DNA from: Thermodesulfovibrionia bacterium
Lineage (GTDB): Bacteria; Nitrospirota; Thermodesulfovibrionia; Thermodesulfovibrionales; SM23-35
Reading direction: 5' to 3'
NCBI GenBank assembly: GCA_041478735.1
Contig: JBGOWS010000001.1
Coordinates: forward strand, 1-38,689
Length of the DNA stretch: 38,689 bases
Both the position numbers and the translations under genes were made by a program. Each line of letters starts with the position of its first letter. Position 1 is the first letter of the stretch. Shown piece by piece: positions 5,938 through 29,961 of the stretch. The notes below the pieces were generated by a model. The model searched no databases, had not been told where the DNA came from, and saw only the letters and a program-made list of their open reading frames with translations.

Positions 5938-6624
5938 ATGGTATCCAGGAATAAGCCGGATAACCTGCCACCTTCAATGCTCTTATGGGGTGGTACGGGA
6001 CAGGCCAAGGTTTTACGGCCACTCATAGAATATTACGGCTCAAAGGTTGTCGTGGTAATTGACGATACACCGGATATTCCCCCGCCTTTCCCTGACGTCC
6101 CGGTGTACTTCGGGTGGGATGGGTTTTATCAGTGGATAAAGGATCAGGACCGAAAAAAAATCGGTTTTTGTATAGCAATCGGGAATCCTCATGGGAGGGT
6201 AAGAATCTCGCTGCATGATTCGCTGAATGCTGAGGGGCTTTCACCTGTGACATTGGTTCATCCGGCTGCCTGGGTTGCCAAGAATGCGTTTATTGGAGAT
6301 GGATCGCAAGTTCTTGCCGGAGCAATTGTTGAGGCTGAAGCAAGCATCGGACGACAATGCATCATTAATACTAAGGCAAGCGTTGATCACGAGTGTATCC
6401 TTCATGATGGAGTGGAACTTGCACCTGGTGCAACGCTTTGTGGAATCGTCACAGCAGGAATAAATGCCTGGATATGTGCGGGTGCGATAGTGCTTCCGCG
6501 AATCAATATAGGTGCTGATGCGGTTATAGGTGCGGGTGCTGTTGTGACAAGGGATGTGCCGGAGGCAACAACGGTCGTAGGCGTTCCGGCAAGACCGTTG
6601 AATGCAGGAAAAAAGAAGGATTAG
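5938..6624 (+). CDS. NeuD/PglD/VioB-family sugar N-acetyltransferase (left-handed beta-helix)
   Basis: N-terminal Rossmann-like [11 protein letters not shown] followed by hexapeptide repeats ([13 protein letters not shown]...[13 protein letters not shown]). Starts 1 nt after the upstream stop (TAAATG). Confidence 0.8.
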
Positions 6625-6626
6625 AC

Positions 6627-7742
6627 ATGAAAAAGATTTTTATGGCAGGACCCTGGATAACTGAACACGAGATAAAAGTAGTCGAAGATGCCATGAAAAA
6701 TGGCTGGTACGAAAATGCTTACTACTATGTTGAAACGTTCCAGCGCGAGTTTGCGGAATATCATAGCCGAAGGTATGGCATTATGACCCCCAATTGCACC
6801 ACGGCAATCCATCTTCTTCTTACTGCCATGGGCATTAAGAAGGGAGACGAAGTCATTGTCCCTGAGTGCACATGGATTGCAACTGCCGCACCTATTACTT
6901 ATCTTAGGGCTACACCAGTTTTTTGCGATATTGATCCCGAACACTGGTGTCTCGATCCTCTTTCCGTTGAGAGGAATATTACAGAAAAGACGAAGGCTAT
7001 TATTGTTGTTGATCTTTACGGCAATATGCCGCTGATGGATGAGCTCTTGGAGATATCACACAAATATCGAATACCGCTTGTCGAAGATGCAGCTGAGGCC
7101 ATTGGATCGATTTATAAGGGAACACGCGCAGGAAAGTTCGGCATCGGATCTGTTTTTAGCTTTCACCGGACAAAGACTATCACCACAGGTGAAGGTGGGA
7201 TGTTGCTTCTTGATGATGCCACCTTGTATGAAAGATGTATGTTTTTGCGGGACCATGGGCGGGTCAAGGATATACCATACTACAATTCAGAAGTTACCTA
7301 TAAATATATGCCATTCAATCTGCAGGCTGCTCTTGGATATGCTCAGTTTCAGCGAATAGAGGAACTTGTTGGCAGGAAACGAGAACTCCTGAAAATGTAT
7401 AAAGAACGGCTGTCTGATATTGAAGACCTGCAGTTTAACTCTGAACCTGAGCATGTGCAAAATGGGGCATGGACCACGGCCCTCGTATTTGGGAAATCTC
7501 ATTGTATTACGAAGAAAGAAGCTATGAGACAGATAGAAGCTATGGGAATGCTAACCCGACCTTTTTTTTATCCGCTGTCTTCACTCCCAGCCTATCCCGG
7601 TTGCGGCCCAAAATATGAAGAACGTAATCCAATTGCATATGATATCTCAGACCGCGGAATCAATCTGTCCTGTGCTATGAACCTTACTGAAGACCAGATT
7701 CATGCTCAGTGTGACGCAATTAGAAAAATACTCGGCAGATAA
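6627..7742 (+). CDS. Second DegT/DnrJ/EryC1/StrS-family sugar aminotransferase
   Basis: PNCTTAIHLLL, EDAAEAIGS and the PLP-lysine block FSFHRTKTITTGEGG. RBS GAAGGA upstream. Confidence 0.85.
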   Translation: MKKIFMAGPWITEHEIKVVEDAMKNGWYENAYYYVETFQREFAEYHSRRYGIMTPNCTTAIHLLLTAMGIKKGDEVIVPECTWIATAAPITYLRATPVFCDIDPEHWCLDPLSVERNITEKTKAIIVVDLYGNMPLMDELLEISHKYRIPLVEDAAEAIGSIYKGTRAGKFGIGSVFSFHRTKTITTGEGGMLLLDDATLYERCMFLRDHGRVKDIPYYNSEVTYKYMPFNLQAALGYAQFQRIEELVGRKRELLKMYKERLSDIEDLQFNSEPEHVQNGAWTTALVFGKSHCITKKEAMRQIEAMGMLTRPFFYPLSSLPAYPGCGPKYEERNPIAYDISDRGINLSCAMNLTEDQIHAQCDAIRKILGR

Positions 7743-7762
7743 TACTTTTAGAAAGGAATGAT

Positions 7763-8773
7763 ATGAGTGAGCTTACATATATGAAATTGCCGGATCTTAA
7801 GGGAGCAAAAATACTGATAACCGGAGGGCTTGGCTTTATCGGGAGCAATCTTGCACATGCTTGCCTACAGCAGGGGGCAGAAGTATCGATTTTCGATTGC
7901 CTGGACCCCCATTCAGGGGGAAAGATTTATAATGTAATGGATATAAAGGACTCAGTTACTCTTTGCTTCCATGACATACTAAACTTCGATCAGGTGTCTC
8001 ATCATGTAAGCAGAAACGATATTATTATTAATTGTGCTGCTTCGACATCTCATCCTTTTTCAATGAGGGAGCCCTGGATCGATCTTGATGTTAACAGCAG
8101 AGGAGTTATCAACATATTGGAGGCCATTCGTAGATTCAATCGCAGGGGAAAGTTCATTCATATCGGCACGAGTACTCAGTTGGGAAGGTTACAATATCAA
8201 CCTGCTGACGAGAACCATCCCGAGTTCCCGACTGATATCTATTCAGCTAATAAGAGTGTTTCAGAAAAATATGTGCTTATATATGCGAATGCTTTTCAAT
8301 TGAGGGCGTCTGTTGTAAGATTGTCAAATGTCTTTGGCCCGAGAGCCAGCATACATAGTCCCGAATTTACTTTCAATAATTATTTCATCGGCCTTGCCCT
8401 GCAGGGAAAGGACATAACCGTATTCGGAGACGGGGCCCAAAAAAGAAACGCAATCTATGTCGACGATGTGGTCTCAGCTATTCTGATGGCGGCAAAGAGC
8501 GACTTGGTCGACGGTGAGACCCTCTTTGCAGTTAGCGATTACCATTATAGCGTTGCTAAGATTGCTGAGGAAACGGTTCGACATATGGGTTCAGGTAACG
8601 TCAAGTTCATAGAGTGGCCAAAAAGCAGAAAATCCATTGAAGTTGGCGACGCGATTCTAAGCAATAAGAAAGTCAGGAAGCTGCTGAACTGGTCGCCCGA
8701 GCATGACTTGGAAGCAGGTCTTTTAAAGACAAAGGCATTCTATGAGACATGTCTTGATGAATATCTGAGGTGA
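7763..8773 (+). CDS. NAD-dependent sugar epimerase/dehydratase (extended SDR)
   Basis: GGLGFIGSNL Rossmann motif and YSANK (YxxxK) catalytic motif. Confidence 0.8.
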   Translation: MSELTYMKLPDLKGAKILITGGLGFIGSNLAHACLQQGAEVSIFDCLDPHSGGKIYNVMDIKDSVTLCFHDILNFDQVSHHVSRNDIIINCAASTSHPFSMREPWIDLDVNSRGVINILEAIRRFNRRGKFIHIGTSTQLGRLQYQPADENHPEFPTDIYSANKSVSEKYVLIYANAFQLRASVVRLSNVFGPRASIHSPEFTFNNYFIGLALQGKDITVFGDGAQKRNAIYVDDVVSAILMAAKSDLVDGETLFAVSDYHYSVAKIAEETVRHMGSGNVKFIEWPKSRKSIEVGDAILSNKKVRKLLNWSPEHDLEAGLLKTKAFYETCLDEYLR

Positions 8774-8777
8774 AGAA

Positions 8778-9725
8778 ATGAAAATATTGATTACCGGGGC
8801 GCTTGGACATATAGGATCACGGCTGCTTCGTGACATTCCGAAGCTTCAGCCATGCGTCGAGATTATCATGATAGACAATATGATGACTCAGCGATATTCA
8901 TCTCTTTTTGACCTTCCGGAAGGGGGCACATATCATTTCATTGAAGATGATATTTTGACAGCCGATATATGGGCAGTGATGAATGGAGTCAATGTGGTTA
9001 TTCACCTCGCAGCTGTAACTGATGCGGCCAATAGCTTCAGGAACAAGGAACAGGTTGAGCATGTAAATTATAATGCTACTGCGAGAGTTGCTGAGGCCTG
9101 TTGTACTGCGGGAATACCTATGATCCATATTTCGTCTACAAGCGTATATGGAACTCAAAAAGAACTTGTAGATGAGACCTGCTCGCATGACGAACTCCAA
9201 CCACAGAGCCCTTATGCGGAGACAAAGCTGAAGGAGGAAAATCTGCTGAGAAATCTTGGTTTGTCGAAAGGGCTCCGGTTTATCTCGTGCCGGTTCGGGA
9301 CAATTGCCGGTACCTCGACTGGCATGCGCTTCCATACTGCTGTCAACAAGTTTTGCTGGCAGGCAGTTATGGGGCAGCCGCTTACTGTCTGGAGAACTGC
9401 CATGCACCAAAAGCGGCCTTATCTTTCTCTTGATGATGCAGTGAGGGCATTGATGTTTATAATTGATAGAGAGCTCTTTGATAACAGAGTCTACAACGTG
9501 CTGACTGAGAACCTGACGGTGCACGATATAGTCGAGTCTATAAAGCAGAGGGCCCCTGAACTTTTGGTTGGTTTTGTCGATGCCCAGATTATGAATCAGT
9601 TATCCTATGAAGTATCGAATAAGCGATTTAAAGACAAAGGTTTTAATTTTACCGGCAGTATCGACAGATGTATCGCTGATACTATCAGATTGATTGGTAA
9701 AGCAGGAGGAAACCGTGTCAGATAA
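8778..9725 (+). CDS. NAD-dependent sugar epimerase/reductase (extended SDR)
   Basis: GALGHIGSRL Rossmann motif and YAETK (YxxxK). RBS GAGGTG upstream. Confidence 0.8.
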   Translation: MKILITGALGHIGSRLLRDIPKLQPCVEIIMIDNMMTQRYSSLFDLPEGGTYHFIEDDILTADIWAVMNGVNVVIHLAAVTDAANSFRNKEQVEHVNYNATARVAEACCTAGIPMIHISSTSVYGTQKELVDETCSHDELQPQSPYAETKLKEENLLRNLGLSKGLRFISCRFGTIAGTSTGMRFHTAVNKFCWQAVMGQPLTVWRTAMHQKRPYLSLDDAVRALMFIIDRELFDNRVYNVLTENLTVHDIVESIKQRAPELLVGFVDAQIMNQLSYEVSNKRFKDKGFNFTGSIDRCIADTIRLIGKAGGNRVR

Positions 9726-10464
9726 GAAAATGTATACCCGCGAAGAGTTTGAGAACTTGCGCAAAGAGTCTGCACTGGCTATGGACGGGGATCAATCCAT
9801 TAGGGAAGAAGCGCTTAAAGTGCTGGTAAAGGCAGATCAATACCGGTGGATCCATCAAACCACCTGGCTTGGTGAGCCAATCCTCAATCTCCCCCAAGAT
9901 ATGTTTGCGATTCAGGAAATTATTTTCAGGACCAGGCCGAAATTTATTATAGAAGTTGGAGTTGCATGGGGAGGTTCTCTGTTATTCTACTCCACGCTTA
10001 TGGAGGCGCTCGGCGGTGAAAGAATTGTCGGCGTAGACCTATACATCCCTGAGGATCTGAAAGCCAGGCTCCTTTCGCACGGGAAACTGTCGGAGAGGAT
10101 TACCTTGATAAACGGATCATCAGTTGAAGAGGATACGCTCAGCAGAATTCAATCCATCATCGGTAATTCGCGCGATGTCATGATAATGCTGGACTCCTAT
10201 CATACCCACCAACACGTTCTCATGGAACTTAGGATGTATTCACCTCTAATCGGTATAGGGCACTATCTGATTTGCGGGGATACCATCCTTGAAGATATTC
10301 CACAGCAGGTGCACCGCCCACGGCCATGGGGACCGGGCAATAACCCAAAAACAGCCCTCAATGCGTTTCTGAAGGAGTCGGATCGCTTTGTCGTTGACGA
10401 AAGCATAGGTACAAAATTATTGTTCACCTGTAACCCGGGCGGGTATCTTCGGTGCGTACGATGA
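9715..10464 (+). CDS. CmcI/cephalosporin-hydroxylase-family SAM methyltransferase (sugar O-methyltransferase type)
   Basis: WIHQTTWLGEPILNLPQDMFAIQEIIF...IIEVGVAWGGS is the CmcI-family signature. GTG at 9715 lies 6 nt after AGGAGG (9703-9708). The track start at 9694 (TTG) and the ATG at 9730 are alternatives. Confidence 0.75.
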   Translation: MSDKKMYTREEFENLRKESALAMDGDQSIREEALKVLVKADQYRWIHQTTWLGEPILNLPQDMFAIQEIIFRTRPKFIIEVGVAWGGSLLFYSTLMEALGGERIVGVDLYIPEDLKARLLSHGKLSERITLINGSSVEEDTLSRIQSIIGNSRDVMIMLDSYHTHQHVLMELRMYSPLIGIGHYLICGDTILEDIPQQVHRPRPWGPGNNPKTALNAFLKESDRFVVDESIGTKLLFTCNPGGYLRCVR

Positions 10465-13400
10465 ATAAAGCGCTGGTGAGCATCGGGATTCCTGTCTATA
10501 ATGATGAAACTTGGGTGAGCAAGACATTGAAATCTGTTATCAATCAGGATTATAATAATCTTGAGATAATAGTTGTAGATGATTTTTCCAACGATAAGAC
10601 CCGCGAAATATGTAAATCATTTCAAACCACAGATCACAGAATTATCTTCCATGAAAATCCTTTTACTATAGGTGCTATAGAAAACCATAAACTTGTTTTC
10701 AACTTAAGTCACGGTGAATATTTTATTTGGTGTAATGGTCACGACTATTTTGATCCATCTTACATCTCGAAATGTGTAGAATCTTTAGAACAGGATAAAA
10801 GCTTGCAGCTATGTTGCGGTAAAACCGATCTCATTAGCATGGACGGAGTAACTTTCAAAACGTTATTCCAATCACTTGATACCCGTGGAATGAGTGCTGT
10901 TGACCGCTTCCATGCAGTTTATTGGGCGTCAACAAAAAATGCATGTATCTTTTATGGTGTGTTCAGATCGGAGAGCATAAAAAATGCAAACCCTTTTCGT
11001 AAAACATTGGGTGGAGATTTAATCTTTCTTGCTGAAGTATCATTAAAAGGAAATTTCCTACAACGAGATGACATTACATTCTACCGTCAGCGAGTAAGAC
11101 CAGAACTTACTGTCGAACAGGCTACTCAACGCTGGATTGAGAATATTGTTCAACCAGAAGGTCATCGCCTTGAAGCTGTCACTCCTTGGCTAAACATGGC
11201 ATATGAGTATCTTAATATGATTGTTAATTTAAGAAGACCCGCCACTGAACAGGAAGTTCTATTATCGACAGCAATTGATCTAGTAAAGATAATATATGGC
11301 GATCGGATACAATCAGACATTGAGAAACTTATCTCTATCAATGTTGAGGAAATAACAGGTCCTTTTAATCGCAATACTTATCTGACAGAACTCATCCCCA
11401 ACTTAATCAAAGCCAAGTTTTTTTATCGTGATATTAGCAAATTAGACAATATGTTGCATAAATGTATTGGAATGACAGGACAAGTTGATTCATTGATGTC
11501 TGTACCTTATCGGCCGATGTCAATAGTGACAGACTTAACCAAAATGAAGTTACCAAAAATGGCAATTGAGCAATATAATAAATCTCAAGAGTATATAACA
11601 TCGGGAAACTTTAATGAAGCCATAAACGAACTGGAAGTACTCATTGACGGGTATCCCGATTTCGCCATCGCCTATAATGACCTTGGAGTTATTTATTACA
11701 ACAAGGGGGATAAGGAAAGGGCGCTGAAATATTACGAGAAGGCAGTGGCATTAAATCCAGAAAATATTAACTTCCAGAAAAACCTCGCCGATTTTTATTT
11801 TGTAGAATTGGGTCATACCGAAGATGCTATCAGGATTTACCTCAAGGTTCTGGCTACACATCCCGAGGATATTGAAGCATTGCTTACTATTGGTAATTTT
11901 TGTGTTACTGTGGAAAAGATCGAGCAGGCAAAAGTCTTTTTCAATAGAGTGCTTAAAATTAACCCAATAAATGCAGAAGCCATGAAAATCATTGATCTTC
12001 TAAACAAGCAACATAGGGCAATTACGCCTGCGCAGACTGATGCGACCACAAATGGCGTTGAATGCCCTATATGTGACGGAAGATTTCAGGCATTTTTACC
12101 CTTTGGAGTAAGGCCGAGACCCAACGCTTTGTGCCCTGTTTGCGACAGCTTAGAGCGCCACCGCCTGCTGTGGCTGTATCTCCAAATAAAAACGGACTTT
12201 TTAAAAGAAAATTTAAAGGTTCTTGACATCGCTCCGACAAGGGTTCTTTCACGAAAAATCGCAGAGCTGCCGAACATTGACTACATAAGCATTGATTTAA
12301 ATTCACCGTTGGCTATGCAATTTATGGATATAACATCACTAACTTTCCCCGACAATCATTTCGATTGCATATTCTGCTACCATGTTCTCGAACACATCCC
12401 TGACGACAACAAAGCGATTAGCGAATTGTTTCGCGTTCTGAAACCTTCAGGATGGGCAATTATACAAGTACCCGTTAATGAAGATATCGAGAAAACATTA
12501 GAGGACACCAAGGTTACCGACCCTAAAGAACGAGAGAAACTATATGGACAGAATGACCATGTCCGCCTTTATGGAAGGGACTTTAAAGAACGGCTTGAGA
12601 AGGGCAAGTTCTATGTCACTGTAGATGATTTTGTATCGACATTACCCCTGAATCAGATTAAAACTTACGCGCTCGATCCTAATGAAAACATCTATTTTTG
12701 CAGAAAGAAATCAAAGTCGCAAAATTTAAGCGTACCTGATATCAAAAGGAACAAAATAAAAGTTGTCTTTGCGGTTACCGAAACAGGAGAAATGAGCGCT
12801 GCGGGCGATTATTTCACGGCGATGGAACTCGGCCTTGCCTGTCGGGAACAATTCGGTTGGGATGTCGAATTGGTACCTACGGAAAGATGGTACGATGTTG
12901 CTGATGCTGATGTCCTTGTTGCCATGACCCACCGCTATAATCTCAATCGATTGGTCCCCTTGGCCACGAGTATCATAAAAATTTGCTGGATGCGGAATTG
13001 GTTTGACGGCTGGGCCGGGCAACCTTTCTTTCACCTTTGGGATATTTATCTCTGCTCTTCCCTAAAGGCACTTGACTATATTAAGGGGAAATACCATGTA
13101 AACCCGCATCTTTTGAGACTCGCGACAAACCCAAAAAGGTTCAATCCACTTGGACAGGAGCGAAAAATTGACTACTGTTTTACCGGAAACTATTGGAACG
13201 ATCCCAGGGATATTGAGAAGATAAACCCGGAAAAAATCGGTTTGAATTTCGCCCTGTTCGGTAAAAACTGGGAACAACATGCTCAATTCAAACAATATTA
13301 TAGAGGATTCATTCCATATTCTGATCTGCCGAGTATTTATAATCAGGCAAAGATACTGGTTGATGACGCCAATAGAGTGACAAAACAGTGGGGCTCCGTA

Positions 13401-16400
13401 AACAGTCGGGTTTTTGATGCTTTGGCCGCAGGTACGTTAGTAATAACTAATAGCATGGAGAGTTCCAAGGATGCTTTTCAGGGCAAGTTGCCGGTCTATA
13501 ACACACCCGCCGAATTACGGAAATTGCTTCATCTATTCACAGGTGATTCCCAAGCATACGAAAGCAAGGTCAATATACTCCGCAAAATGGTCATGGACTA
13601 TCACACGTATGAGGTCAGAGCTCTAGAGTTTGGGGAGATTCTATCAAATTATGGCAACATAAGGCAGGGTATTGACACTGGATTGAGCAAAAATAGATCT
13701 CTTAAGGCGATTCCCCGCATTTCCATTATTATCCCGGTTTTTAACAAACTTGACTTTACGAAGAAGTGTTTGTCGGCGCTGAAAGTAAACACCAATCCGG
13801 ACATTTATGAAATCATTGTTGTTGATAACGCGTCAACGGACGGCACTGCACGTTTTCTCGCGTCTCTTAACAGCCTATCAATAAAAATCATCACGAACGA
13901 AAAAAACGAGGGTTTTGCAAAGGCCTGCAATCAAGGGGCAAAAGCCGCATCAACTGACTACCTGCTCTTCCTCAACAACGACACTGAGCCGCAGCAGGGA
14001 TGGCTTGAACCGCTCTTGAATATTATCAGTCATGATGATTCGGTTGCTGCCGTTGGCAGCAAGTTGCTCTATCCCGATGGGACGATCCAGCACGGGGGCA
14101 TATTGATCGTCGATGACCGGAAAAACAACGATCCGCTGCTGGCGAGAAACAACCATGTAAACAAACCAGCAACCGCACCCGAAGCAAATGAGCCTGCCAC
14201 CTATCAGGCGCTGACCGCAGCTTGCCTCCTAATTCGCAAGGCCGCATTTCAAAAAGCAGGCGCCTTTGATGAAGAGTACTGGAACGGCTATGAGGATGTC
14301 GACTTGTGCTTCACGCTTCGGGAGCAGGGTGGAAAACTCGTCTATCAGCCGGAAAGCGTCGTGATCCACCATGAATCCAAGAGCGGTCCCGAACGCTTCA
14401 GCAAGGCAAGGGAGAACATCGCCCGCCTGCACAAAAAATGGCTGGGCAAAATCAAGCCGGATGCTGTTCTGAACAAAGACGGGAGCGTGGCAATGACCGA
14501 TGCAGGAACAATACAGCCGTACCGCGCTCTGGAGTGGGACAACCAGCCGCTCGTCACTGCGCCTGCAGCGATCAAGCCGAACATTACCTCCATCGTCATT
14601 CTCACCTTTAACCAGCTTAAGTATACAAAGGAGTGTGTCGAGAGCATCAGTAAACATACACCTGAGCCGCACGAGATCATCTTTGTGGATAATGGTTCAA
14701 CAGACGGGACTGTAAAATGGCTGAAAAAGCTTGTGGAGGAGAATCCTTCTTATCGGCGTATTGAGAACGGTACAAACCTTGGGTTTGCAAGAGGCTGTAA
14801 TCAGGGTATTACTGCGTCGAAGGGTGAGTATATACTGCTGCTTAACAATGATGTGGTTGTGACGGAAAACTGGCTTTCAGGCATGCTTGAATGTCTTAAC
14901 AGTGACCCCGGCATAGGCATTGTGGGGCCGATGACAAATAACATCAGCGGCACACAGAAGGACTCCAATGCCACATATAAGACCATTAAGGACATGCACA
15001 CCTATGCAAAGTCGTTCAGGGAAAAGAACCAGCATCGCAGGATACCATTGAGGAGGATCGTCGGCTTTTGCATGCTGTTTAGACGCTCGCTGGTAGAAAA
15101 AATCGGGTTACTGGATGACAGTTTTGGTACAGGCAATTTTGAGGATGACGATTATTGCCTGAGATCTTCATTGGCAGGATACAGGAATATTATTGCAGGG
15201 GATGTCTTTATTCATCATTACGGAAGCAGGAGTTTTATCGGTAACAGGATAGACTATGGTTCAGCAATGGCGGGCAACCGTAAGATATTTAATGAGAAAT
15301 GGAGCGGGATAAATTCTCAGAGCGAACTTGGGCAGAAGCTGGTTATTACAAGTGCGTTGGAGAATGCGACCGAACTGCATGAAAGGGGGATGACCGATAA
15401 GGCGGTGGAGAGACTTATCGAAGGCATAAAATATTCACCGGAAAACAAGGCGATCTATTATGCCCTTGCTATGATATTGATCGACGCTAAGCGGTATCAG
15501 GATGCATTTGATGCACTCAACTCCTTGCCGGAGGAAGCAAAAAATGATGCTAAGAGTTTGGAACTGATAGGTTACTGCAAGGAAGGCATTGCGCATTACG
15601 AAGAGGCAGAGGAGTATGCTGACAAAGCGCTTTCAATGAACTCTACCCGAGCCCCGGCTCTCAATCTTAGAGGGATATTGGCGTACAGACAGGGCGATAG
15701 AAAAACAGCAGAAGATCTCTTTAAAAGAGCGATTGCTTCTGATCCTGGATATGGCGAGCCATATACAAACCTTGGTGTTCTGAGCTGGGCTGAAGGAAAT
15801 AAGGATGAGGCTTTGAATATGCTTGAGAGGGGATTCATCCTGTCACCGGCTATCATGGATATAGCCACTACATACCATTCAGCAATTACCGGGATGAACG
15901 AATTCGGGAGGGCTGAGAGGGTATTCCATGAGGCCCAGGCGCTTTATCCATTGAGACGCAGGATTGCCTTTCTTCTTATCGATGTGCTGTTACAGCAAGG
16001 CAAAAATAAGGAAGCAATGCAGGAAATAGAAGAAGCGATGGTTTCATTCGGAATAGATGATGACCTTCTCTCCGCTGCCCTTGCGGTCAGGGATAAAGTC
16101 GGCTCTAAAGAGATAAATAAGACCTTAAAAAACAGAGGAACCCTTTCCTTATGCATGATCGTGAAGAATGAGGAACAACATATCGCGAAATGCCTTATGA
16201 GCGTGAAGCCTGTTGTCGACGAGATGATAGTGGCTGATACAGGTTCGACGGACAGGACGAAGGAGATAGCAAAGGCGTTAGGCGCAAAGGTATATGATTT
16301 TGAATGGACAGGGGATTTCTCTGAGGCGAGGAACTATTCACTGTCAAAGGCTTCAGGTAAGTGGATTCTTGTGCTCGATGCCGATGAGGTGATCTCTTTA

Positions 16401-19400
16401 TTGGATCATGAGAAGATAAGGACTATCGCAGATAACAATGAAGATAAGAAGATGGCCCGCCAGTTTACTACAAGGAACTATGTTGATTTTGTGGGAATAC
16501 ATAGCTGGAGAAAAAACGACGATTTCTATAATGAACAGGCTGGTGTTGGGTGGATAGCTAGCAGAAAGGTAAGATTTTTCCCGCGCAATGACAAAATATA
16601 TTTTGTAAACCCTGTTCACGAAATTCTGGAGCCTTCTATAGAAAAACTTAGCATGGAGATAGTGGAATGTGATGTTCCCATACACCATTATGGCAAATTG
16701 GATAAAGACAAGGGTAAAAAGAAGGGTAGTATATATTTAGAACTGGGAGAGAAAAAGCTTGCCGAATCTGGTGGTGGAGATCCAAAGGCGCTCTGGGAAC
16801 TGGGAATTCAGAATTTTGTGAACGGAAATTATCAGGATGCCTTGGAAAGATTCCGTGAGATCATAGCCCTCGAGCCAGAACTCCTGCAGGCCGGTACTGA
16901 ATTGTCAAAGGTCCATATGCAAGTCGGTATTTGTTACATGTGTCTCCATAACTATTCAGATGCATTAGCTTCACTTGGGAAGTCTATTGAGCTGGCTCCT
17001 GACCTGAAGGAGGCGAACCTTAATTATGCTGTAACGCTTATCTTTCTTGGACGGGCAGCAGAGGCAATTATTTCGATCGAAACATTTTGCAGAATGGACC
17101 CGAACCACCTTCATGGGAAATACATACTTGCCATTGCACAATTCTGTGCAGGGAAGAAGGAAGAAGGCTTTTCGACAGTTAGTTCACTCAACGGCAGTAT
17201 GATGCCATTCATGCAATTTGTGGCGCTTTTTGTGAAAGATCTTAAGTTGTCAGGCCAATCAGACTATATTCCGGCAATCCTCAGGCCACTTGAGGAACTT
17301 AACAGCATCACTCCTGAACTGTCTGTGATGCTCAAAGAATGTTGCCGGGAGGAGAAATCTAAAGGAGTTATTGACGAAAAATCTATTAATGTCTTTGAAA
17401 AACCTTGTGAAGATACGAACCAGGATAAGCACAGAATCGATTCAGATGAAGGGATTAAAACTTTTACACAGAAAGAAGCAAAGACAGGTCTGACTTCTAT
17501 TGTGATATTGACCTTTAACCAACTCAAATACACGCAGGAATGCGTAGATAGTATCAGGAGATATACCCCTGAGATACATGAGATCATCTTTGTGGATAAT
17601 GGTTCAACTGATAGAACCGTGAAGTGGCTGAGGGAGCTCATCAATGAAAACCCGAACTATAAACTCATCGAGAATGAAAAGGATCTTGGTTTTGCGAAAG
17701 GATGCAATCAGGGGATAAGCGCATCATCAGGAGAATATATTCTCCTGATGAATAATGAAGTTGTTGTTACAGAAGGCTGGCTTTCAGGAATGCTCGAATG
17801 CCTGAACAGTGCACTGGATATCGGCATCGTAGGCCCCATGACAAATAATATCAGCGGTCCCCAGAAGGTTGCGGATGCTGGTTATAAGGCAATGCACAAG
17901 ATGCATGAATATGCCAGGCTTTTCAGGGAAAGGCACAGGCACAGGAGAATATCGCTCAAAAGAATAGCCAGGTTCTGCATGCTTTTCAGGCGTGAACTGG
18001 TTAAAAAGATCGGGATGCTTGACGAGAGTTTCGGATCTATAAATTTTGAGGACGATGATTTCTGTCTTAGGGCAATTATTGAAGGATATAGGAACCTTGT
18101 TGCAGGTGATGTTTTTATTCACTATCACGGCAGTAGGAGCTTTATCGGCAACAGGATTGACTATAGTGCAGCCATGTCTGGCAACAGGAAGATTTTCAAT
18201 GAGAAATGGAACGGGATTGACCGAAACAGCGCGTTGGGAAAAGCGCTGGTGATGGTTACCGCGCTTGAACAGGCAGATGAACTGAAACAGCAAGGCCTTG
18301 TTAATGAAGCTGTAAAGGTTTTGATCGACTCTATCAGCTTCGCTCCGGACGACAAGAGGAGCTACCTGAATCTTGCGGAACTGCTTATTGAAGACAAAAG
18401 GTTCACAGACGCGCTTGAGGCGCTTCAGAACCTACCTGTTGGATCAGAAGTGGATGCGCGGGTAATGGAATTGACAGGTTATTGCAAGGAAGGTATGAAG
18501 TTGTATGATGAAGCGATGGCTTGTGCTGAAAATGCCCTTGCAATAAATCCACACTCTGCATCAGCGCTAAACCTTAGGGGAGTGCTGGCAATCAGAAAGG
18601 GGGATAAAAGCACTGCAGAAGATTTCTTTAAGAAGGCTATAGATTCTGACCCTGGATATGGCGAGCCATATACAAACCTTGGGGTCATGAAGTGGGTCGA
18701 AGGGAAAAGGGAAAAAGGTTTCGAACTGCTCGAAAGGGGGTTCATGCTAGCTCCGTCCATTGCGGATATTGTTACAACATACCACTCTGCTGTTAGTGAA
18801 ATGAAAGCATTTGAGAGGGCTGAACGCGCCTTCAGGGAGGCAAAGGAACTTTATCCACAGAATAAGAGAATTATCTTTCTGTTAATAGATATTTTCTTGC
18901 AGCAGGACAGATTTGAGAATGCTATGCAGGAAATTGAACATGCAATGATAGTCTTTGGAATAGACGACGGCATGCTTTCTGCATCTCTTGATATCAGAGG
19001 TAAGATGGGCCCCAAGGAAATAAAAGAGACCATAAAGAAAAAAGGTACACTTTCTTTGTCAATGATCGTAAAAAACGAAGAGCAGCATATAGCGAAATGT
19101 CTTATGAGTGTAAAGCCTGTGGTGGACGAGATAATCGTGGTTGATACCGGTTCAACAGACAGGACAAAGGAAATTGCACTGGTTTTTGGTGCAAAGGTAT
19201 ATGATTTTGAATGGGCTGAGGATTTTTCTGCAGCGAGGAACTACGCTCTCGAAAAGGCTTCCGGACAGTGGATTCTCTCGCTCGATGCAGATGAGGTTAT
19301 ATCGCCCTCGGATTATGCTTCACTGTCCGCTCTTATAAAAAAGGATCATTCCAGGCCAACGGCTTATTCCTTCATAACCAGAAACTATTCAAATGAGATA

Positions 19401-20273
19401 GTTTCGCAGGGATGGACACCAAATGACGGAAGATATCCAAATGAAGAAGCTGCAGCTGGATGGTTTCCTAGTGAAAAGGTGAGACTTTTCTTTAATGATA
19501 AACGCATCAGGTTCGAAAATCCAGTGCATGAGTTTGTTGAGGGATCAGTGCAAAGGGCCGGAATGGCGATCAAGCCTTGCAGTATCCCAGTGCACCATTA
19601 CGGAAGGCTTAATATTGAAAAAGTGGCTGCCAAAGGTGAGGCTTACTATATTCTCGGCAAGAAAAAACTGGTGGAAAAGGGGAATGATTTAAAAGCTCTC
19701 TTCGAACTTGGGGTGCAGGCTGGGGAACTGAAGAAATACAAAGAAGCTGCCGAGTTATTTCAAAAAGTGGTTGATATTGACCCAAAGTATCCCTATGCCT
19801 TATTCAATCTGGGATTTAATTGTATGGAACTGGGCAGATATAATGATGCCTTTGCATTTACTAAGAAGGCCTATGAATTTGATCCAAAACACAAAGAAAC
19901 AGCAATAAACCTTGCCTATTGCGAACTTGTGGTCGGGGATATCAAGAATGCTACTGCTCTTCTTGAAGTCACTGTCAGGAGAGTATCAGAATATCCTCCC
20001 GCAATGGGCACTCTTGCGGCTGCATATTATATTAATGGGAAAAAAGAAGAAGCGTTAACCATACTCGAGAAACTTAACAGGAAAGGGTTCGATTGTTCTG
20101 TCTGTCTTTACGATATAGCGAGTGGACTTTTCTCCACAGGCAGGCTTAAACAGGCCATGGATGTGCTTGAGGCAGCTGTTCAGAGCAAGAACATCCACAA
20201 AGACACAGGTGATCTTCTTCAGAAATGTTACAGGGCAATAATTAATGGGGAGCGAAACCCTGATTCAAAATAA
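10461..20273 (+). CDS. Giant (~3270 aa) multidomain glycosyltransferase/methyltransferase/TPR protein
   Basis: Approximate domain order by motif:
- GT2 at 10470-11150 (IPVYND...VVDDFSND)
- TPR at 11590-12010
- Zn-ribbon + SAM MTase at 12060-12700 (CPICDG...CPVCDS...VLDIAP...VLEH)
- CgeB/GT1-like at 12760-13650
- GT2 at 13719-14440
- then [GT2-TPR-GT2-TPR] twice, at 14586-17492 and 17493-20273
No obvious signal peptide or TM segment. ATG 10461 overlaps the upstream stop (ATGA). Confidence 0.85.
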   Translation: MNKALVSIGIPVYNDETWVSKTLKSVINQDYNNLEIIVVDDFSNDKTREICKSFQTTDHRIIFHENPFTIGAIENHKLVFNLSHGEYFIWCNGHDYFDPSYISKCVESLEQDKSLQLCCGKTDLISMDGVTFKTLFQSLDTRGMSAVDRFHAVYWASTKNACIFYGVFRSESIKNANPFRKTLGGDLIFLAEVSLKGNFLQRDDITFYRQRVRPELTVEQATQRWIENIVQPEGHRLEAVTPWLNMAYEYLNMIVNLRRPATEQEVLLSTAIDLVKIIYGDRIQSDIEKLISINVEEITGPFNRNTYLTELIPNLIKAKFFYRDISKLDNMLHKCIGMTGQVDSLMSVPYRPMSIVTDLTKMKLPKMAIEQYNKSQEYITSGNFNEAINELEVLIDGYPDFAIAYNDLGVIYYNKGDKERALKYYEKAVALNPENINFQKNLADFYFVELGHTEDAIRIYLKVLATHPEDIEALLTIGNFCVTVEKIEQAKVFFNRVLKINPINAEAMKIIDLLNKQHRAITPAQTDATTNGVECPICDGRFQAFLPFGVRPRPNALCPVCDSLERHRLLWLYLQIKTDFLKENLKVLDIAPTRVLSRKIAELPNIDYISIDLNSPLAMQFMDITSLTFPDNHFDCIFCYHVLEHIPDDNKAISELFRVLKPSGWAIIQVPVNEDIEKTLEDTKVTDPKEREKLYGQNDHVRLYGRDFKERLEKGKFYVTVDDFVSTLPLNQIKTYALDPNENIYFCRKKSKSQNLSVPDIKRNKIKVVFAVTETGEMSAAGDYFTAMELGLACREQFGWDVELVPTERWYDVADADVLVAMTHRYNLNRLVPLATSIIKICWMRNWFDGWAGQPFFHLWDIYLCSSLKALDYIKGKYHVNPHLLRLATNPKRFNPLGQERKIDYCFTGNYWNDPRDIEKINPEKIGLNFALFGKNWEQHAQFKQYYRGFIPYSDLPSIYNQAKILVDDANRVTKQWGSVNSRVFDALAAGTLVITNSMESSKDAFQGKLPVYNTPAELRKLLHLFTGDSQAYESKVNILRKMVMDYHTYEVRALEFGEILSNYGNIRQGIDTGLSKNRSLKAIPRISIIIPVFNKLDFTKKCLSALKVNTNPDIYEIIVVDNASTDGTARFLASLNSLSIKIITNEKNEGFAKACNQGAKAASTDYLLFLNNDTEPQQGWLEPLLNIISHDDSVAAVGSKLLYPDGTIQHGGILIVDDRKNNDPLLARNNHVNKPATAPEANEPATYQALTAACLLIRKAAFQKAGAFDEEYWNGYEDVDLCFTLREQGGKLVYQPESVVIHHESKSGPERFSKARENIARLHKKWLGKIKPDAVLNKDGSVAMTDAGTIQPYRALEWDNQPLVTAPAAIKPNITSIVILTFNQLKYTKECVESISKHTPEPHEIIFVDNGSTDGTVKWLKKLVEENPSYRRIENGTNLGFARGCNQGITASKGEYILLLNNDVVVTENWLSGMLECLNSDPGIGIVGPMTNNISGTQKDSNATYKTIKDMHTYAKSFREKNQHRRIPLRRIVGFCMLFRRSLVEKIGLLDDSFGTGNFEDDDYCLRSSLAGYRNIIAGDVFIHHYGSRSFIGNRIDYGSAMAGNRKIFNEKWSGINSQSELGQKLVITSALENATELHERGMTDKAVERLIEGIKYSPENKAIYYALAMILIDAKRYQDAFDALNSLPEEAKNDAKSLELIGYCKEGIAHYEEAEEYADKALSMNSTRAPALNLRGILAYRQGDRKTAEDLFKRAIASDPGYGEPYTNLGVLSWAEGNKDEALNMLERGFILSPAIMDIATTYHSAITGMNEFGRAERVFHEAQALYPLRRRIAFLLIDVLLQQGKNKEAMQEIEEAMVSFGIDDDLLSAALAVRDKVGSKEINKTLKNRGTLSLCMIVKNEEQHIAKCLMSVKPVVDEMIVADTGSTDRTKEIAKALGAKVYDFEWTGDFSEARNYSLSKASGKWILVLDADEVISLLDHEKIRTIADNNEDKKMARQFTTRNYVDFVGIHSWRKNDDFYNEQAGVGWIASRKVRFFPRNDKIYFVNPVHEILEPSIEKLSMEIVECDVPIHHYGKLDKDKGKKKGSIYLELGEKKLAESGGGDPKALWELGIQNFVNGNYQDALERFREIIALEPELLQAGTELSKVHMQVGICYMCLHNYSDALASLGKSIELAPDLKEANLNYAVTLIFLGRAAEAIISIETFCRMDPNHLHGKYILAIAQFCAGKKEEGFSTVSSLNGSMMPFMQFVALFVKDLKLSGQSDYIPAILRPLEELNSITPELSVMLKECCREEKSKGVIDEKSINVFEKPCEDTNQDKHRIDSDEGIKTFTQKEAKTGLTSIVILTFNQLKYTQECVDSIRRYTPEIHEIIFVDNGSTDRTVKWLRELINENPNYKLIENEKDLGFAKGCNQGISASSGEYILLMNNEVVVTEGWLSGMLECLNSALDIGIVGPMTNNISGPQKVADAGYKAMHKMHEYARLFRERHRHRRISLKRIARFCMLFRRELVKKIGMLDESFGSINFEDDDFCLRAIIEGYRNLVAGDVFIHYHGSRSFIGNRIDYSAAMSGNRKIFNEKWNGIDRNSALGKALVMVTALEQADELKQQGLVNEAVKVLIDSISFAPDDKRSYLNLAELLIEDKRFTDALEALQNLPVGSEVDARVMELTGYCKEGMKLYDEAMACAENALAINPHSASALNLRGVLAIRKGDKSTAEDFFKKAIDSDPGYGEPYTNLGVMKWVEGKREKGFELLERGFMLAPSIADIVTTYHSAVSEMKAFERAERAFREAKELYPQNKRIIFLLIDIFLQQDRFENAMQEIEHAMIVFGIDDGMLSASLDIRGKMGPKEIKETIKKKGTLSLSMIVKNEEQHIAKCLMSVKPVVDEIIVVDTGSTDRTKEIALVFGAKVYDFEWAEDFSAARNYALEKASGQWILSLDADEVISPSDYASLSALIKKDHSRPTAYSFITRNYSNEIVSQGWTPNDGRYPNEEAAAGWFPSEKVRLFFNDKRIRFENPVHEFVEGSVQRAGMAIKPCSIPVHHYGRLNIEKVAAKGEAYYILGKKKLVEKGNDLKALFELGVQAGELKKYKEAAELFQKVVDIDPKYPYALFNLGFNCMELGRYNDAFAFTKKAYEFDPKHKETAINLAYCELVVGDIKNATALLEVTVRRVSEYPPAMGTLAAAYYINGKKEEALTILEKLNRKGFDCSVCLYDIASGLFSTGRLKQAMDVLEAAVQSKNIHKDTGDLLQKCYRAIINGERNPDSK
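14586..17492 (+). repeat. Copy A of the intragenic tandem duplication (GT2-TPR-GT2-TPR module)
   Basis: Starts TSIVILTFNQLKYTKECVESI. It is collinear with copy B at an offset of exactly 2907 nt (969 codons) at the anchor. Identical patches reach ~30 nt (e.g. GAGATCATCTTTGTGGATAATGGTTCAAC, CCTGGATATGGCGAGCCATATACAAACCTTGG). Confidence 0.9.
17493..20273 (+). repeat. Copy B of the intragenic tandem duplication
   Basis: Starts TSIVILTFNQLKYTQECVDSI. The same domain order continues to the stop codon. The copies have diverged at both the nucleotide and protein level. Confidence 0.9.
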
Positions 20274-20478: not shown

Positions 20479-20859
20479 CTAGTCTGCAATCGAGCTTCTT
20501 AAACCTGCTGCAAGGTTCAGGTTGATATTAATGATAATGTTGAGTTTTCCCGGATCAGGATAAGCCATAACATTAATTATCCGCTTGTCGATAAAAAGAC
20601 TTAAGCTGAGTATATCATCCCGCAGTTTTTTGGGTAGCGGATTATCCGGTTTTGCGAGTTCTGACTGGAATATGCTCCAGATCTGCTGATTGAATCTGAG
20701 GGCTTCGTTAAGCTTTGCGTCACGGTCTTTAGCATCCCATTTGCCCTGGCAATCTTTCAGCAGATGAGCTGCTTTTGTGAGGACCATGGCCTCCAGTTCA
20801 CGGCCTGAAATCGTGGTCTTCTGGACATCCCTATATGCCTGTAGTTGATTTGCGTACAC
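20479..20859 (-). CDS. flaF: Flagellin synthesis regulator FlaF
   Basis: AYRDVQKTTISGRELEAMVLTKAAHLL...LRFNQQIWSIFQSELAKPDNPLPKKLRDDILSLSLFIDKR matches the FlaF family pattern. Sits next to flbT and the flagellin gene. Confidence 0.8.
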   Translation of the reverse strand: MYANQLQAYRDVQKTTISGRELEAMVLTKAAHLLKDCQGKWDAKDRDAKLNEALRFNQQIWSIFQSELAKPDNPLPKKLRDDILSLSLFIDKRIINVMAYPDPGKLNIIININLNLAAGLRSSIAD

Positions 20860-21238
20860 TATTAATTACCTCCTGTTCATAGTCTATCAGTTTTCTGGTC
20901 AGTTTAAGTGCCTGATAATATCTGCTCTGCAATATATGGCCGCTGATCTCGTGGAGCAGCGGTTTTGTGCTGGGTGCAGCCTCGACAATATCCTTTACCA
21001 GTTCCCAGTAAGTCTTGTGATGATCTGCCAGGTTTTTTTCATTAATATACATCAACTGTATCACGAGATAAATCCTTTTGCATGGGGAATCGGCATCCTT
21101 TAAGGTCATTATGTCCTTTTCACGAAGGATCGGGACATTGTTTTCAACCACCAGATTGGCCTTGGCAGCGCCGTTCACAACTACAGCGCCGCCGATGATC
21201 AGTTTTTCATGTGGTTTGAGCGTTATTTTTAGTGCCAT
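20831..21238 (-). CDS. flbT: Flagellar biosynthesis repressor FlbT
   Basis: MALKITLKPHEKLIIGGAVVVNG...NVPILREKDIM matches the FlbT N-terminal signature. Overlaps the flaF start by 29 nt. Confidence 0.8.
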   Translation of the reverse strand: MALKITLKPHEKLIIGGAVVVNGAAKANLVVENNVPILREKDIMTLKDADSPCKRIYLVIQLMYINEKNLADHHKTYWELVKDIVEAAPSTKPLLHEISGHILQSRYYQALKLTRKLIDYEQEVINSVRKSTTGI

Positions 21239-21244
21239 CAGCGT

Positions 21245-21730
21245 TCAGATCTTTATGTTAAGGATCGATCCCGGCTGCGCTTTATCCGTGAATTCGGTAT
21301 TGTCCTGCTTCAGTTTATCCCTCAACCCGAAAAGTTTATCAAGCGCCAGGGATATATCTTTGTCAGTTGAGTCCTCAGATAGCATCTTCCCTGAGAACAT
21401 CTTCTTCAGATTGGCATCAATTGCCGACTTCTCAACTTCTTCCTGTATCCCCTTGATTTTCTTGATAAGGTCAAGTCTCTGGTAAGTGCCCGGGGGGAAG
21501 AAAGGGGGATAATGTGTCAGGATTATGTCAAGTTCTTCCTGCAGGTAATTTACCGAGATGGTTATCCCTTGTGCCTGCATCTGCGGAGTACTGATCTCAT
21601 TCTCTGACATACCGGTACTGACCTGACTGGCGGAAAAGCCGGACCTGATCTCAACATTCGAATTGCTTTTATCCACAAGGCGACTCGCATTCTGCGTGAC
21701 CTGATTTGTATAAATACTATTAATATTCAT
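21245..21730 (-). CDS. Hypothetical 161-aa protein in the flagellin operon
   Basis: Clean ORF with RBS AGAGGG, lying between flagellin and flbT. I recognise no family; it does not look like FlaG, FliS or FliW by eye. Confidence 0.55.
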   Translation of the reverse strand: MNINSIYTNQVTQNASRLVDKSNSNVEIRSGFSASQVSTGMSENEISTPQMQAQGITISVNYLQEELDIILTHYPPFFPPGTYQRLDLIKKIKGIQEEVEKSAIDANLKKMFSGKMLSEDSTDKDISLALDKLFGLRDKLKQDNTEFTDKAQPGSILNIKI

Positions 21731-21747
21731 AAGTGCCCTCTTATGTG

Positions 21748-21780
21748 AAAGACAGGGAGGATTTCTTCCTCCCTGTCTTT
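21748..21780 (-). terminator. 14-bp perfect hairpin between flagellin and the downstream ORF (partial terminator or attenuator)
   Basis: AAAGACAGGGAGGA-TTTCT-TCCTCCCTGTCTTT. On the minus-strand RNA the stem is followed by only UUU, so read-through into ORF161-flbT-flaF is plausible. Confidence 0.55.
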
Positions 21781-21796
21781 ACCCCGTGGCTTCTAT

Positions 21797-22969
21797 TTAT
21801 CCGAACAACCTCAGGACCGACTGTGCTGCCTGTGATGACAGACTCAGAGCTGTTGTGCTTAGAGCCTGACGTGTCTGGAGCATCAGCATATTTGCCCCTT
21901 CTTCGTTCATGTCTGCGAGCGTTAGTTTGTCCGCGCCCTCTGTAAGTGTCGCAACTAAGTTAGCAGTGAAATTGTCCTGTATTTCTATTATACTAAGGTT
22001 GGTGGCCAGCTTTGAGGCCTCTGATCTCAATAATGGGATTGCTGTTTCCAGTTTGCCGAGGTCCGTGCTGATTTCCGTATTCACACTCCATGCCCAGTTT
22101 TGGCCCGATGTAGTATCTGTGGCTGTCGAGCTCAGTGATAAATCACTTGCTGTTGCGCTGAATCCTTTAACTGATATTGCGCTGTTTTCAAAGGATACAT
22201 TCAGGTCTTCGTTCATCAAGAGATTTACGCCTTTGTATCCGGAAGAATTGGCAACAGCATCGATCTGATGCATGAGGCTGTTATACTGCTCTGACAGCGC
22301 CCTTCTCTCTGAAAAGACTGAATAGCCGTCAGTATCAGTTAGAACAGTTGCCTGCGCGCCGCTTTCATCATAAAAGCTGGTGTAATTCCCTTGCGTAATA
22401 GCTGTGTTGCTTGATTTTGCCTCGAGAACAAGTGTTGTCCCTGTAGCAGTTGCAACCATATCAGTAACCTCTGCTTGAGCGTTAATTAATGCTGCAAGGT
22501 TCGAAAGAGTAGTTTCAATGTCATTGGAATCAGCAACAAACTGTGTCGTAGGAGATGTAATAGCACCGGTTGTTGCAACAGCAGTATAAAGAGTGCCGCC
22601 TACGGTAACTGTGTTGGTGGATGATATAGACGTAAACTGAACCTTTATTTGGTTCTTGGCTGCTCCCTTTGCAGCTTGTGACAGAGCTTTTGCTGATTCA
22701 ATCAGGTCTGTGATGGATGAAATGCCTTTATCTGCAGCCTTGATGGTCTGGACCGACTCACCCATGCCTTCCTTGAGGGATGTGATATCATTTGCACGGC
22801 TCAGATGCGCGCGGGATGCAAAATAAGCAATCGGGTTATCAAGAGCAGAGTTGACCTTTTTGCCGGTTGCAAGGCGTCCCTGCGTTTTGTTTAAAAGATC
22901 AGATGTCTGCTGAAGATTTAATAGATTGGCCCGCATGCCAGTGGTTAAGGTAATATTATTGATAGCCAT
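21797..22969 (-). CDS. Flagellin
   Basis: Conserved N-terminus MAINNITLTTGMRANLLNLQQTSDLLNKTQGRLATGKKVNSALDNP and C-terminus ANMLMLQTRQALSTTALSLSSQAAQSVLRLFG. The central domain is Ser/Thr-rich. RBS AGGAG. Confidence 0.9.
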   Translation of the reverse strand: MAINNITLTTGMRANLLNLQQTSDLLNKTQGRLATGKKVNSALDNPIAYFASRAHLSRANDITSLKEGMGESVQTIKAADKGISSITDLIESAKALSQAAKGAAKNQIKVQFTSISSTNTVTVGGTLYTAVATTGAITSPTTQFVADSNDIETTLSNLAALINAQAEVTDMVATATGTTLVLEAKSSNTAITQGNYTSFYDESGAQATVLTDTDGYSVFSERRALSEQYNSLMHQIDAVANSSGYKGVNLLMNEDLNVSFENSAISVKGFSATASDLSLSSTATDTTSGQNWAWSVNTEISTDLGKLETAIPLLRSEASKLATNLSIIEIQDNFTANLVATLTEGADKLTLADMNEEGANMLMLQTRQALSTTALSLSSQAAQSVLRLFG

Positions 22970-29748: not shown

Positions 29749-29961
29749 TTACCTATAGCCCTCCCTCTGCTCCATTCTTATCTGGATATTGTTTGTTCTA
29801 ACTATATACCTATGGGCAAGCCCGTGGAACTCTGCTGATGGATTAGAGACAAAGTCTAAGCTGGTAAATTGTGAACCCTGATCAGAGTTAAAGATGTCCG
29901 GCATTCCTATGGCAAATGCCTTCTGTAGAGCACTTATACAGAAATCCAACCTCAAGGCCAA
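29749..29961 (-). pseudogene. IS3-family transposase (integrase core) fragment
   Basis: PDIFNSDQGSQFTSLDF is the DDE-core HSDxGSQYTS block. There is no N- or C-terminal remainder. Confidence 0.6.

Follow-up and report, generated by a model that had tools for sequence, protein, structure and literature searches.

A 38,689-nucleotide (nt) stretch of DNA from a Thermodesulfovibrionia bacterium (NCBI GenBank assembly GCA_041478735.1, contig JBGOWS010000001.1, positions 1 to 38,689, forward strand), referred to here as the window, encodes a 3270-residue protein whose C-terminal ~1900 residues form two tandem paralogous modules, A and B, each of ~920-970 residues and each ordered as a glycosyltransferase family 2 (GT2) domain, GT2a, a tetratricopeptide repeat (TPR) array, TPR1, a second GT2 domain, GT2b, and a second array, TPR2. 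The protein is probably a soluble cytoplasmic enzyme, most likely O-glycosylating the adjoining flagellin, in which both modules work and labour is divided between them. An earlier note, drawn from the letters of the window alone, had described the pair as a diverged 2907-nt tandem duplication followed by subfunctionalisation.

In the public gene call, as in a separate JGI assembly of independent origin, translation starts at ATG 10461 (3270 amino acids, aa); read from GTG 10452, the open reading frame (ORF) has 3273 codons, and residues are numbered here from that GTG. Scanned with Pfam both entire and in pieces, the protein shows the order GT2n, TPR, zinc ribbon with class I S-adenosylmethionine methyltransferase, Glyco_trans_1_2, GT2m, module A and module B, with a charged linker of ~47 residues leading from TPR2 of module A into module B. 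Neither a membrane span nor a signal-like N-terminus was found in the giant protein (maximum Kyte-Doolittle value of 1.41 over 19-residue windows), which argues for a soluble product. Its parts lie as follows:

10461..20273, + strand, giant multi-glycosyltransferase gene (ORF list, translation, Pfam scans)
aa 1-370, + strand, GT2n, the GT2 domain at the N-terminus of the giant protein
13707..14585, + strand, aa 1086-1378, GT2m, directly 5' of module A (PF00535, E=2e-30)
aa 1379-2347, + strand, module A, GT2a-TPR1-GT2b-TPR2
14586..15326, + strand, aa 1379-1625, module A GT2a (PF00535, E=6e-33; DNGSTD, NND and FEDDD intact)
15327..16106, + strand, aa 1626-1885, module A TPR1 (several TPR Pfam families, e.g. 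TPR_19, E=1.7e-23)
16107..16826, + strand, aa 1886-2125, module A GT2b, GmaR-like (PDB 22ao_A, E=7.6e-30)
16827..17492, + strand, aa 2126 to ~2300, module A TPR2 and linker to module B (TPR_2, E=5e-12)
aa 2348-3273, + strand, module B, GT2a-TPR1-GT2b-TPR2
17493..18233, + strand, aa 2348-2594, module B GT2a (PF00535, E=3.8e-30; NNE replaces NND)
18234..19013, + strand, aa 2595-2854, module B TPR1 (TPR Pfam families)
19014..19733, + strand, aa 2855-3094, module B GT2b, GmaR-like (PDB 22ao_A, E=2.5e-32)
19734..20273, + strand, aa 3095-3273, module B TPR2 and protein C-terminus, including the stop codon (TPR_2, E=9e-19)

Self-comparison of the giant protein by blastp, with sliding 200-residue queries against a self-masked copy, gave a single unbroken diagonal pairing aa 1375-2247 with 2344-3209 at an offset of 969 residues, equal to 2907 nt; the same spacing was obtained by blastn (14586-15310 against 17493-18217, 71.1% nt identity; 15559-16396 against 18466-19303, 71.9%) and by a repeat search of the window, bearing out both the near full-length collinearity of the segments starting at 14586 and 17493 and the 969-codon offset that had been read by eye. 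Low-complexity likeness between TPR arrays, raised beforehand as a possible source of the repeat, was rejected, as the diagonal runs through both catalytic domains and identity is highest within them. In a global alignment of the two modules 503 of 921 residues are identical (55%), which is just over half rather than the 'well over half' first estimated. By domain, identity is 71% in GT2a, 55% in TPR1, 57% in GT2b (N-terminal half 70%, C-terminal half 48%) and ~24-26% in TPR2, that of module A being the fastest-evolving part of the repeat. The upstream GT2m, proposed as a more distant third relative of GT2a, is indeed 42-44% identical to the two GT2a copies over ~110 aa and 30-31% over 192 aa, and groups with the GT2a pair in a tree of the six GT2 domains.

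Between the modules, the proportion of differing synonymous sites (pS) is 0.65-0.84 and that of differing nonsynonymous sites (pN) 0.17-0.53 across domains. The dN/dS ratio suggested earlier as a check is not computable, pS lying above the Jukes-Cantor limit in most domains, and the safe statement is that pN is far below pS in all of them. At sites with the same residue in both copies, 213 codons are identical against 178 expected at full saturation, an excess confined to three conserved segments (z=2.3-2.7). Given saturated synonymous sites and pN far below pS, the two copies are ancient and held under purifying selection, as the earlier view of an old duplication with both copies open had it, and neither copy has inactivating changes across all of its catalytic motifs. 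The exact nucleotide islands of ~30 nt were also recovered, as in-register runs of 32 nt at 15744 (within module A TPR1), 29 nt at 14673 and 24 nt at 16284. As evidence of gene conversion in the window these islands were set aside as weak: those of 24 and 29 nt are nearly matched, with 1-3 mismatches, in genes of other organisms, and so stem from conservation of motifs and codons, which leaves the 32-nt island as the only one private to the window gene.

The two catalytic domains of each module are of different kinds. GT2b is a close relative of the glycosyltransferase domain of GmaR from Listeria monocytogenes, a flagellin beta-O-N-acetylglucosamine (GlcNAc) transferase and MogR anti-repressor built of glycosyltransferase, TPR, linker and anti-repressor domains (PMC9638930). 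The GmaR glycosyltransferase chain 22ao_A is the best PDB match of both GT2b copies (E=4e-29 to 2.5e-32, covering chain residues ~8-190 in each), followed by SunS and ThuS; most of the first ~100 aligned residues are identical to GmaR, with the DTGSTD, W..DFS.ARN, DADE, HE and HYG blocks in common. The GT2b motifs MIVKNEE, DTGSTD, W..DFS.ARN, LDADE, VHE and HHYG are intact in modules A and B and in 54 related units. A TPR array directly follows GT2b in both modules (TPR Pfam families in 16812-17492 and 19719-20270), and TPR2 closes module B; no counterpart was found for GmaR's linker and anti-repressor part, a GT2b+TPR2 query of PDB at E<=1e-3 matching only the 204-residue GmaR glycosyltransferase chain. 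The best NCBIfam match of GT2b is the SunS family TIGR04195, at 56.5 and 57.7 bits against a cut-off of 350, and no NCBIfam family exceeds its cut-off for any domain of the giant protein. GT2a, by its motifs and matches, belongs with the generic GT-A enzymes that extend glycans and carry DxD and xED motifs: its PDB matches are generic sugar-to-sugar GT2 enzymes, such as chondroitin polymerase and GalT1, and its NCBIfam matches, all below cut-off, are EpsD, PgaC, MftF and a rhamnosyltransferase. Both copies carry the DNGSTD block (VDNGSTDG/RT) and the xED motif (FEDDDY/F), the latter within the FEDDD(Y/F)CLR stretch reported earlier as retained in each; the roles of the DxD, xED and DNGSTD motifs in GT-A enzymes have been described (PMC7185993).

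Homologues of the giant protein number 728 at E<=1e-50 among proteins of comparable length, and no published description of a giant fused glycosyltransferase family was found in the literature. The collection used contains no other species from the genus of the source genome, such that comparisons are made at family level and beyond; among GTDB species representatives within the family, the module is present in 21 of 36 genomes. With GT2a, TPR1, GT2b, TPR2 and GT2m coded as a, 1, b, 2 and m, full ORFs from these same-family genomes are ordered as a1b2, a1b2b2, a1b2b2a1b2 and others. Among the 119 best giant homologues, a C-terminal a1b2 is nearly universal, about a quarter have an extra a1b(2), b2 or 1b2, and the commonest architecture is ma1b2 (17/119), GT2m standing ahead of the module in many relatives. 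The comparison of orthologues for module copy number, as had been recommended, thus found unit number to vary widely, and the real repeating units are the half-modules GT2a-TPR1 and GT2b-TPR2, in highly variable number. A Smithella metagenome-assembled genome (MAG) has a young doubling of its own, its two modules being sister at 100/100.

The divergence of the two modules is complementary. In all relatives the best GT2a match is module A and the best GT2b and TPR2 matches are module B: module A GT2a is 77% identical to the GT2a of single-module orthologues, module B GT2b is 58-64% identical to their terminal GT2b, and module B TPR2 is closest to the C-terminal TPR2 of relatives (38-42%). In P0059, a syntenic single-module orthologue, GT2a-TPR1 is nearest to module A (67%; support 97/79) and GT2b-TPR2 nearest to module B (60%). 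Tajima-type counts with ten outgroups found B always the odd copy in GT2a and A always the odd copy in GT2b and TPR2, TPR1 counts being near-equal with four of the ten, and a 2x2 contrast between halves gave Fisher p from 8e-5 to 0.035. Accordingly, it is the outside of the double module (GT2a-TPR1 of A, GT2b-TPR2 of B) that has kept an ancestral-like state, and the inside (GT2b-TPR2 of A, GT2a-TPR1 of B) that has evolved faster, the pattern expected if two modules had split ancestral work between them. Of the proposal of duplication and subfunctionalisation, the paralogous modules, their open and constrained state and their complementary divergence are therefore retained, a single event within the lineage of the window is not, and subfunctionalisation stands as plausible. 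Its further suggestion of a different donor or acceptor for each module found no support, the only catalytic-site difference being an Asp-to-Glu change in the DxD motif of module B GT2a, with the other motifs intact; and its likening to assembly-line enzymes holds as an analogy only, since relatives shuffle the orders of GT2a-TPR1 and GT2b-TPR2 and a carrier-tethered intermediate is not implied.

The history of the doubling is more complex than one clean 2907-nt duplication in the lineage of the window. A first sampling left modules A and B in an unresolved backbone, on which a clade of the two was favoured by the approximately unbiased (AU) test; that preference was a sampling artefact, reversed for GT2b-TPR2 by the addition of P0026, a positional orthologue in the Nitrospiraceae MAG GCA_021811105.1. 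The locus of P0026 (L124) has the gene order of the window (giant gene, flaF, flbT, 161-aa gene, flagellin, response regulators, PilZ, motAB), with neighbouring proteins 42-78% identical to their window counterparts, and P0026 itself consists of a methyltransferase, a TPR1 tail, an A-type GT2b-TPR2 and then a complete module. In the GT2b-TPR2 tree, module A joins the internal unit of P0026 (P0026_b1) at 100/100 and module B joins P0059 and P0011_b1 at 99/98; an exclusive A+B clade is rejected, at a loss of 73.8 in log-likelihood (AU p=0.002), and a clade of module A, P0026_b1 and module B is marginal (p=0.05). Outside a converted tract described below, GT2b-TPR2 units are reciprocal best matches in order (A with the first L124 unit, 48%; B with the second, 48%; cross pairs, 36-41%). 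P0128, a protein with a single module, ends in a third A-type unit, the orthologues of module A TPR2 being those of P0026 (42%) and P0128 (40%). For GT2a-TPR1, in turn, A and B are 64% identical, each is 59-60% identical to the L124 unit, and an A+B clade is not rejected (AU p=0.45).

The back halves (GT2b-TPR2) are thus older paralogues common to other genomes, and the front halves (GT2a-TPR1) either younger duplicates or copies homogenised by gene conversion. Because GT2b-TPR2 of A and of B form separate orthologous lineages, we infer that at least one other Nitrospiraceae lineage split off only after the doubling. It follows from the age of these paralogues that the asymmetry in GT2b-TPR2 would reflect a faster A-type lineage and not post-duplication change here alone.

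In L124, 11305-11683 and 14197-14575 form a 379-nt direct repeat of 100% identity at an offset of 2892 nt, between the two GT2b units; the start of the repeat coincides with the N-terminal methyltransferase junction, and downstream of it identity decays to 0.84 and then 0.48. Gene conversion or unequal recombination within the gene, of recent date, would explain the tract, though it may also be an assembly artefact; on its evidence, intragenic recombination appears to be a real and active process in the giant family.

A possible, if doubtful, alternative history is that, in place of a tandem duplication in situ, a P0128-like A-type gene and a P0059-like B-type gene, already distinct paralogues, were joined by fusion or recombination, with the likeness of their GT2a-TPR1 halves brought about by later gene conversion. 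Such an origin would sit well with an A-type GT2b-TPR2 as the terminal unit of single-module P0128, with the rejection of the A+B clade for GT2b-TPR2, with the many unit orders of relatives and with the recombination seen between the L124 units; it does not readily account for the equal domain order and indel-free register of A and B over ~630 residues, nor for the nearly equal period in L124 (2892 against 2907 nt). Also against it, P0128 could equally have come from a double-module ancestor through module loss, and the clade of module A, P0026_b1 and module B is, as noted, only marginally disfavoured.

The one altered catalytic site bears on whether both modules work. The HMMER alignment places NND of module A GT2a against the DCD/DSD motifs of chondroitin polymerase 2z86/2z87; since its Asp aligns with the second Asp of those motifs, Asp1467 (codon 14850-14852) is predicted to be the metal-binding second Asp of DxD. 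The equivalent in module B is Glu2436, and the codons read directly from the window agree with the change pointed out earlier, GAT at 14850-14852 (LLLNNDVVV) and GAA at 17757-17759 (LLMNNEVVV). Among 49 GT2a-TPR1 units NNE occurs here alone; Asp stands in all the canonical ones, and the equivalent unit of P0026 keeps it too. Glu is confirmed in the copy from the JGI assembly, which is of equal length and differs by one residue. Module B GT2a otherwise keeps DNGSTD, xED and the HxxGS block. Elsewhere in the family, GT2a domains of extra modules lack DNGSTD and DxD altogether (P0007 aa 1420-1665, P0011 aa 2753-2990 and the GT2a of L116-L122; for example 'VEETAGP...LMDDKVRV' and 'VP..S..P'), and look like pseudo-glycosyltransferase domains kept inside active giants.

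From these observations an unlikely alternative can be drawn, in which one catalytic domain of each kind became redundant once the module had doubled, and GT2b-TPR2 of A and GT2a of B are kept mainly as pseudo-enzyme scaffolds or flagellin-binding spacers in what is effectively a single-module enzyme. The faster evolution of the inner parts, the uniqueness of Glu at the DxD motif and the fully degenerate second-module GT2a of P0007, P0011 and the 'VP...S..P' variants all lean in this direction, and pseudo-glycosyltransferase scaffolds are known, COSMC being one (PMC7185993). GT2b of module A, however, keeps every GmaR-type motif, as do its long-diverged orthologues P0026_b1 and P0128; Glu for Asp is conservative, and module B GT2a keeps its remaining motifs; and pN is far below pS in every domain. 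Since some relatives have wholly degenerate second-module GT2a domains, drift of module B GT2a towards a non-catalytic role is a realistic rival for that one domain, but the window copy is far from the degenerate state.

The assignment to flagellin draws on the genes on either side of the giant gene:

2877..10464, + strand, sugar-nucleotide tailoring cassette, upstream of the giant gene (Pfam)
20479..22969, - strand, flaF, flbT, 161-aa gene and 390-aa flagellin, convergent and downstream (Pfam)

The cassette comprises a C-methyltransferase, two DegT aminotransferases, a dTDP-sugar isomerase-like protein, a hexapeptide acyltransferase, two short-chain dehydrogenase/reductase (SDR) epimerase/dehydratases and a CmcI-type O-methyltransferase. 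FlaF (E=3.9e-33), FlbT (E=1.6e-44) and Flagellin_N/C were identified by Pfam, the 390-aa flagellin (21797-22969) has a Ser/Thr-rich middle, and beyond it lie a c-di-GMP/response-regulator set and then motAB. At loci of full-length module relatives, flaF, flbT or flagellin was found within the fetched flanks in 27 of 32 cases, the other five being short contigs; the linkage of the module to flaF-flbT-flagellin spans several phyla, and the L124 and L125 loci show clear synteny with the window, flaF-flbT-flagellin included. The giant protein is on this basis most likely a cytoplasmic flagellin glycosylation enzyme, and the adjoining 390-aa flagellin its presumed substrate. A target other than flagellin, be it a polysaccharide or another protein such as a pilin or S-layer protein, with flagellar adjacency incidental, is suggested by the family-level resemblance of GT2a, GT2m and GT2n to exopolysaccharide and O-antigen GT2 enzymes and by the source annotation of relatives as 'O-antigen biosynthesis protein' or 'involved in cell wall biosynthesis', but is very improbable in view of the conserved linkage, also at both syntenic orthologues, a flagellin glycosyltransferase as the best structural homologue of GT2b, and a giant protein that lacks membrane segments and near which no gene for a flippase, polymerase or initiating phosphotransferase lies.

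In the mechanism proposed, the TPR arrays would hold flagellin prior to export, and each GmaR-like GT2b would add the first sugar to flagellin Ser/Thr residues; GT2a would then act with the domains upstream of the modules (GT2n, GT2m, GT1-like and methyltransferase) to extend and methylate the glycan, the substrates being unusual deoxy-amino sugars from the upstream cassette. Labour would be divided between two functional modules, with module B GT2a altered at its metal site (Asp to Glu).

Several points weigh against this picture of two working modules acting on flagellin. What points to flagellin as the substrate is homology to a single characterised enzyme, together with gene linkage. Having Glu as the metal-binding residue of DxD could cripple module B GT2a, for which the plainly degenerate second-module GT2a of P0007 and P0011 makes a scaffold role possible. 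The backbone of the unit trees is poorly resolved; the ten outgroups of the rate tests are non-independent, and those tests presume outgroups lying outside A+B, which is partly violated for GT2b-TPR2.

A number of further observations concern the surroundings of the giant gene. Its ATG start overlaps the stop of the upstream CmcI-type methyltransferase ORF (9694-10464) at 10461-10464, which suggests translational coupling of the sugar cassette with the giant transferase. A DDE_Tnp_1 transposase gene (149-1810, + strand) lies just upstream of the cassette and is consistent with a glycosylation island that is a mobile or rearranging region. The 161-aa ORF between flagellin and flbT (21245-21730, - strand) has no Pfam or NCBIfam match; its position is conserved, with a protein 51% identical in L124 and an unrelated-looking 275-aa ORF (23%) at that place in L125. 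After motB, the ~3.4 kb of 29750-33130 hold short ORFs only, including a 122-aa fragment that matches just the last 38 positions of the Mg_chelatase (ChlI) profile, and may represent a degraded gene region. Elsewhere in the genome, on a different contig, a second Flagellin_N ORF of 365 aa (C228:3582-3989, - strand) could be a second flagellin or FlgL.

Parts of this organisation are familiar from characterised systems. The GT-then-TPR core of GmaR is what the window modules repeat, and gmaR and the giant gene both lie in a flagellar gene neighbourhood; in the window, however, the unit occurs twice and is one of at least seven catalytic domains in a 3270-aa chain, the donor is probably not UDP-GlcNAc alone, given the deoxy-amino-sugar cassette, and the host is an uncultured Nitrospirota-type bacterium with FlaF/FlbT regulation. 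FlmG of Caulobacter crescentus is a cytoplasmic flagellin O-glycosyltransferase whose TPR domain binds flagellins (PMC7591256); it is likewise cytoplasmic and modular, with separate TPR and sugar-transfer domains, and its system has FlaF and FlbT. By its published description FlmG has an N-terminal TPR domain and a C-terminal GT-B-type domain and transfers pseudaminic acid, whereas the giant enzyme has glycosyltransferase then TPR, GT-A (GT2) domains and several catalytic domains per chain.

In Clostridioides difficile type B strains, a GT1/GT2/GT3 system has been described in which GT1 and then GT2, the latter with methylation, act sequentially on flagellin (PMC5207246). The stepwise glycan, begun by an initiating transferase and continued by GT2-type transferases that add and methylate deoxyhexoses, matches the initiating-type GT2b, extending-type GT2a and GT2m, and methyltransferases of the giant; there the enzymes are separate proteins, whereas in the window they form one fused chain with the initiating/extending pair duplicated. 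SunS and ThuS (PDB 7msn, 7msp and 7msk; TIGR04195) share a GT-A domain of the GT2b subfamily followed by a helical-repeat substrate-binding domain, and glycosylate a polypeptide directly, but their linkage is to sulphur, their substrate is a bacteriocin precursor without flagellar context, and GT2b scores only ~57 of the 350 bits at which their family is cut off.

A broader and decidedly speculative proposal, which we consider improbable as it stands, is that GT2a-TPR1 and GT2b-TPR2 are exchangeable cassettes whose number and order set the kinds of glycan or the classes of site on flagellin, with intragenic recombination, of which the 379-nt identical tract of L124 and the many unit orders of relatives are the signs, diversifying flagellar surface chemistry (for example against phages or grazers) and the two GmaR-like units starting different glycans or serving different sets of sites.

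Module duplication and divergence is an ordinary process, and the duplication itself raises no long-standing question; it is one instance of widespread unit shuffling in a little-studied giant GmaR-like family, in which related uncultured bacteria freely gain, lose and recombine modules, and of which the window provides a well-documented example. What is known of flagellin O-glycosylation comes from a few model bacteria with small, separate enzymes, and the window locus represents a giant fused type. The doubled module constitutes a natural experiment within one protein, with two initiating-type and two extending-type domains in complementary divergence; if both modules are active, module number may encode the complexity of the filament glycan, and the pair would be useful for understanding site choice by protein glycosyltransferases and for engineering cytoplasmic protein glycosylation.

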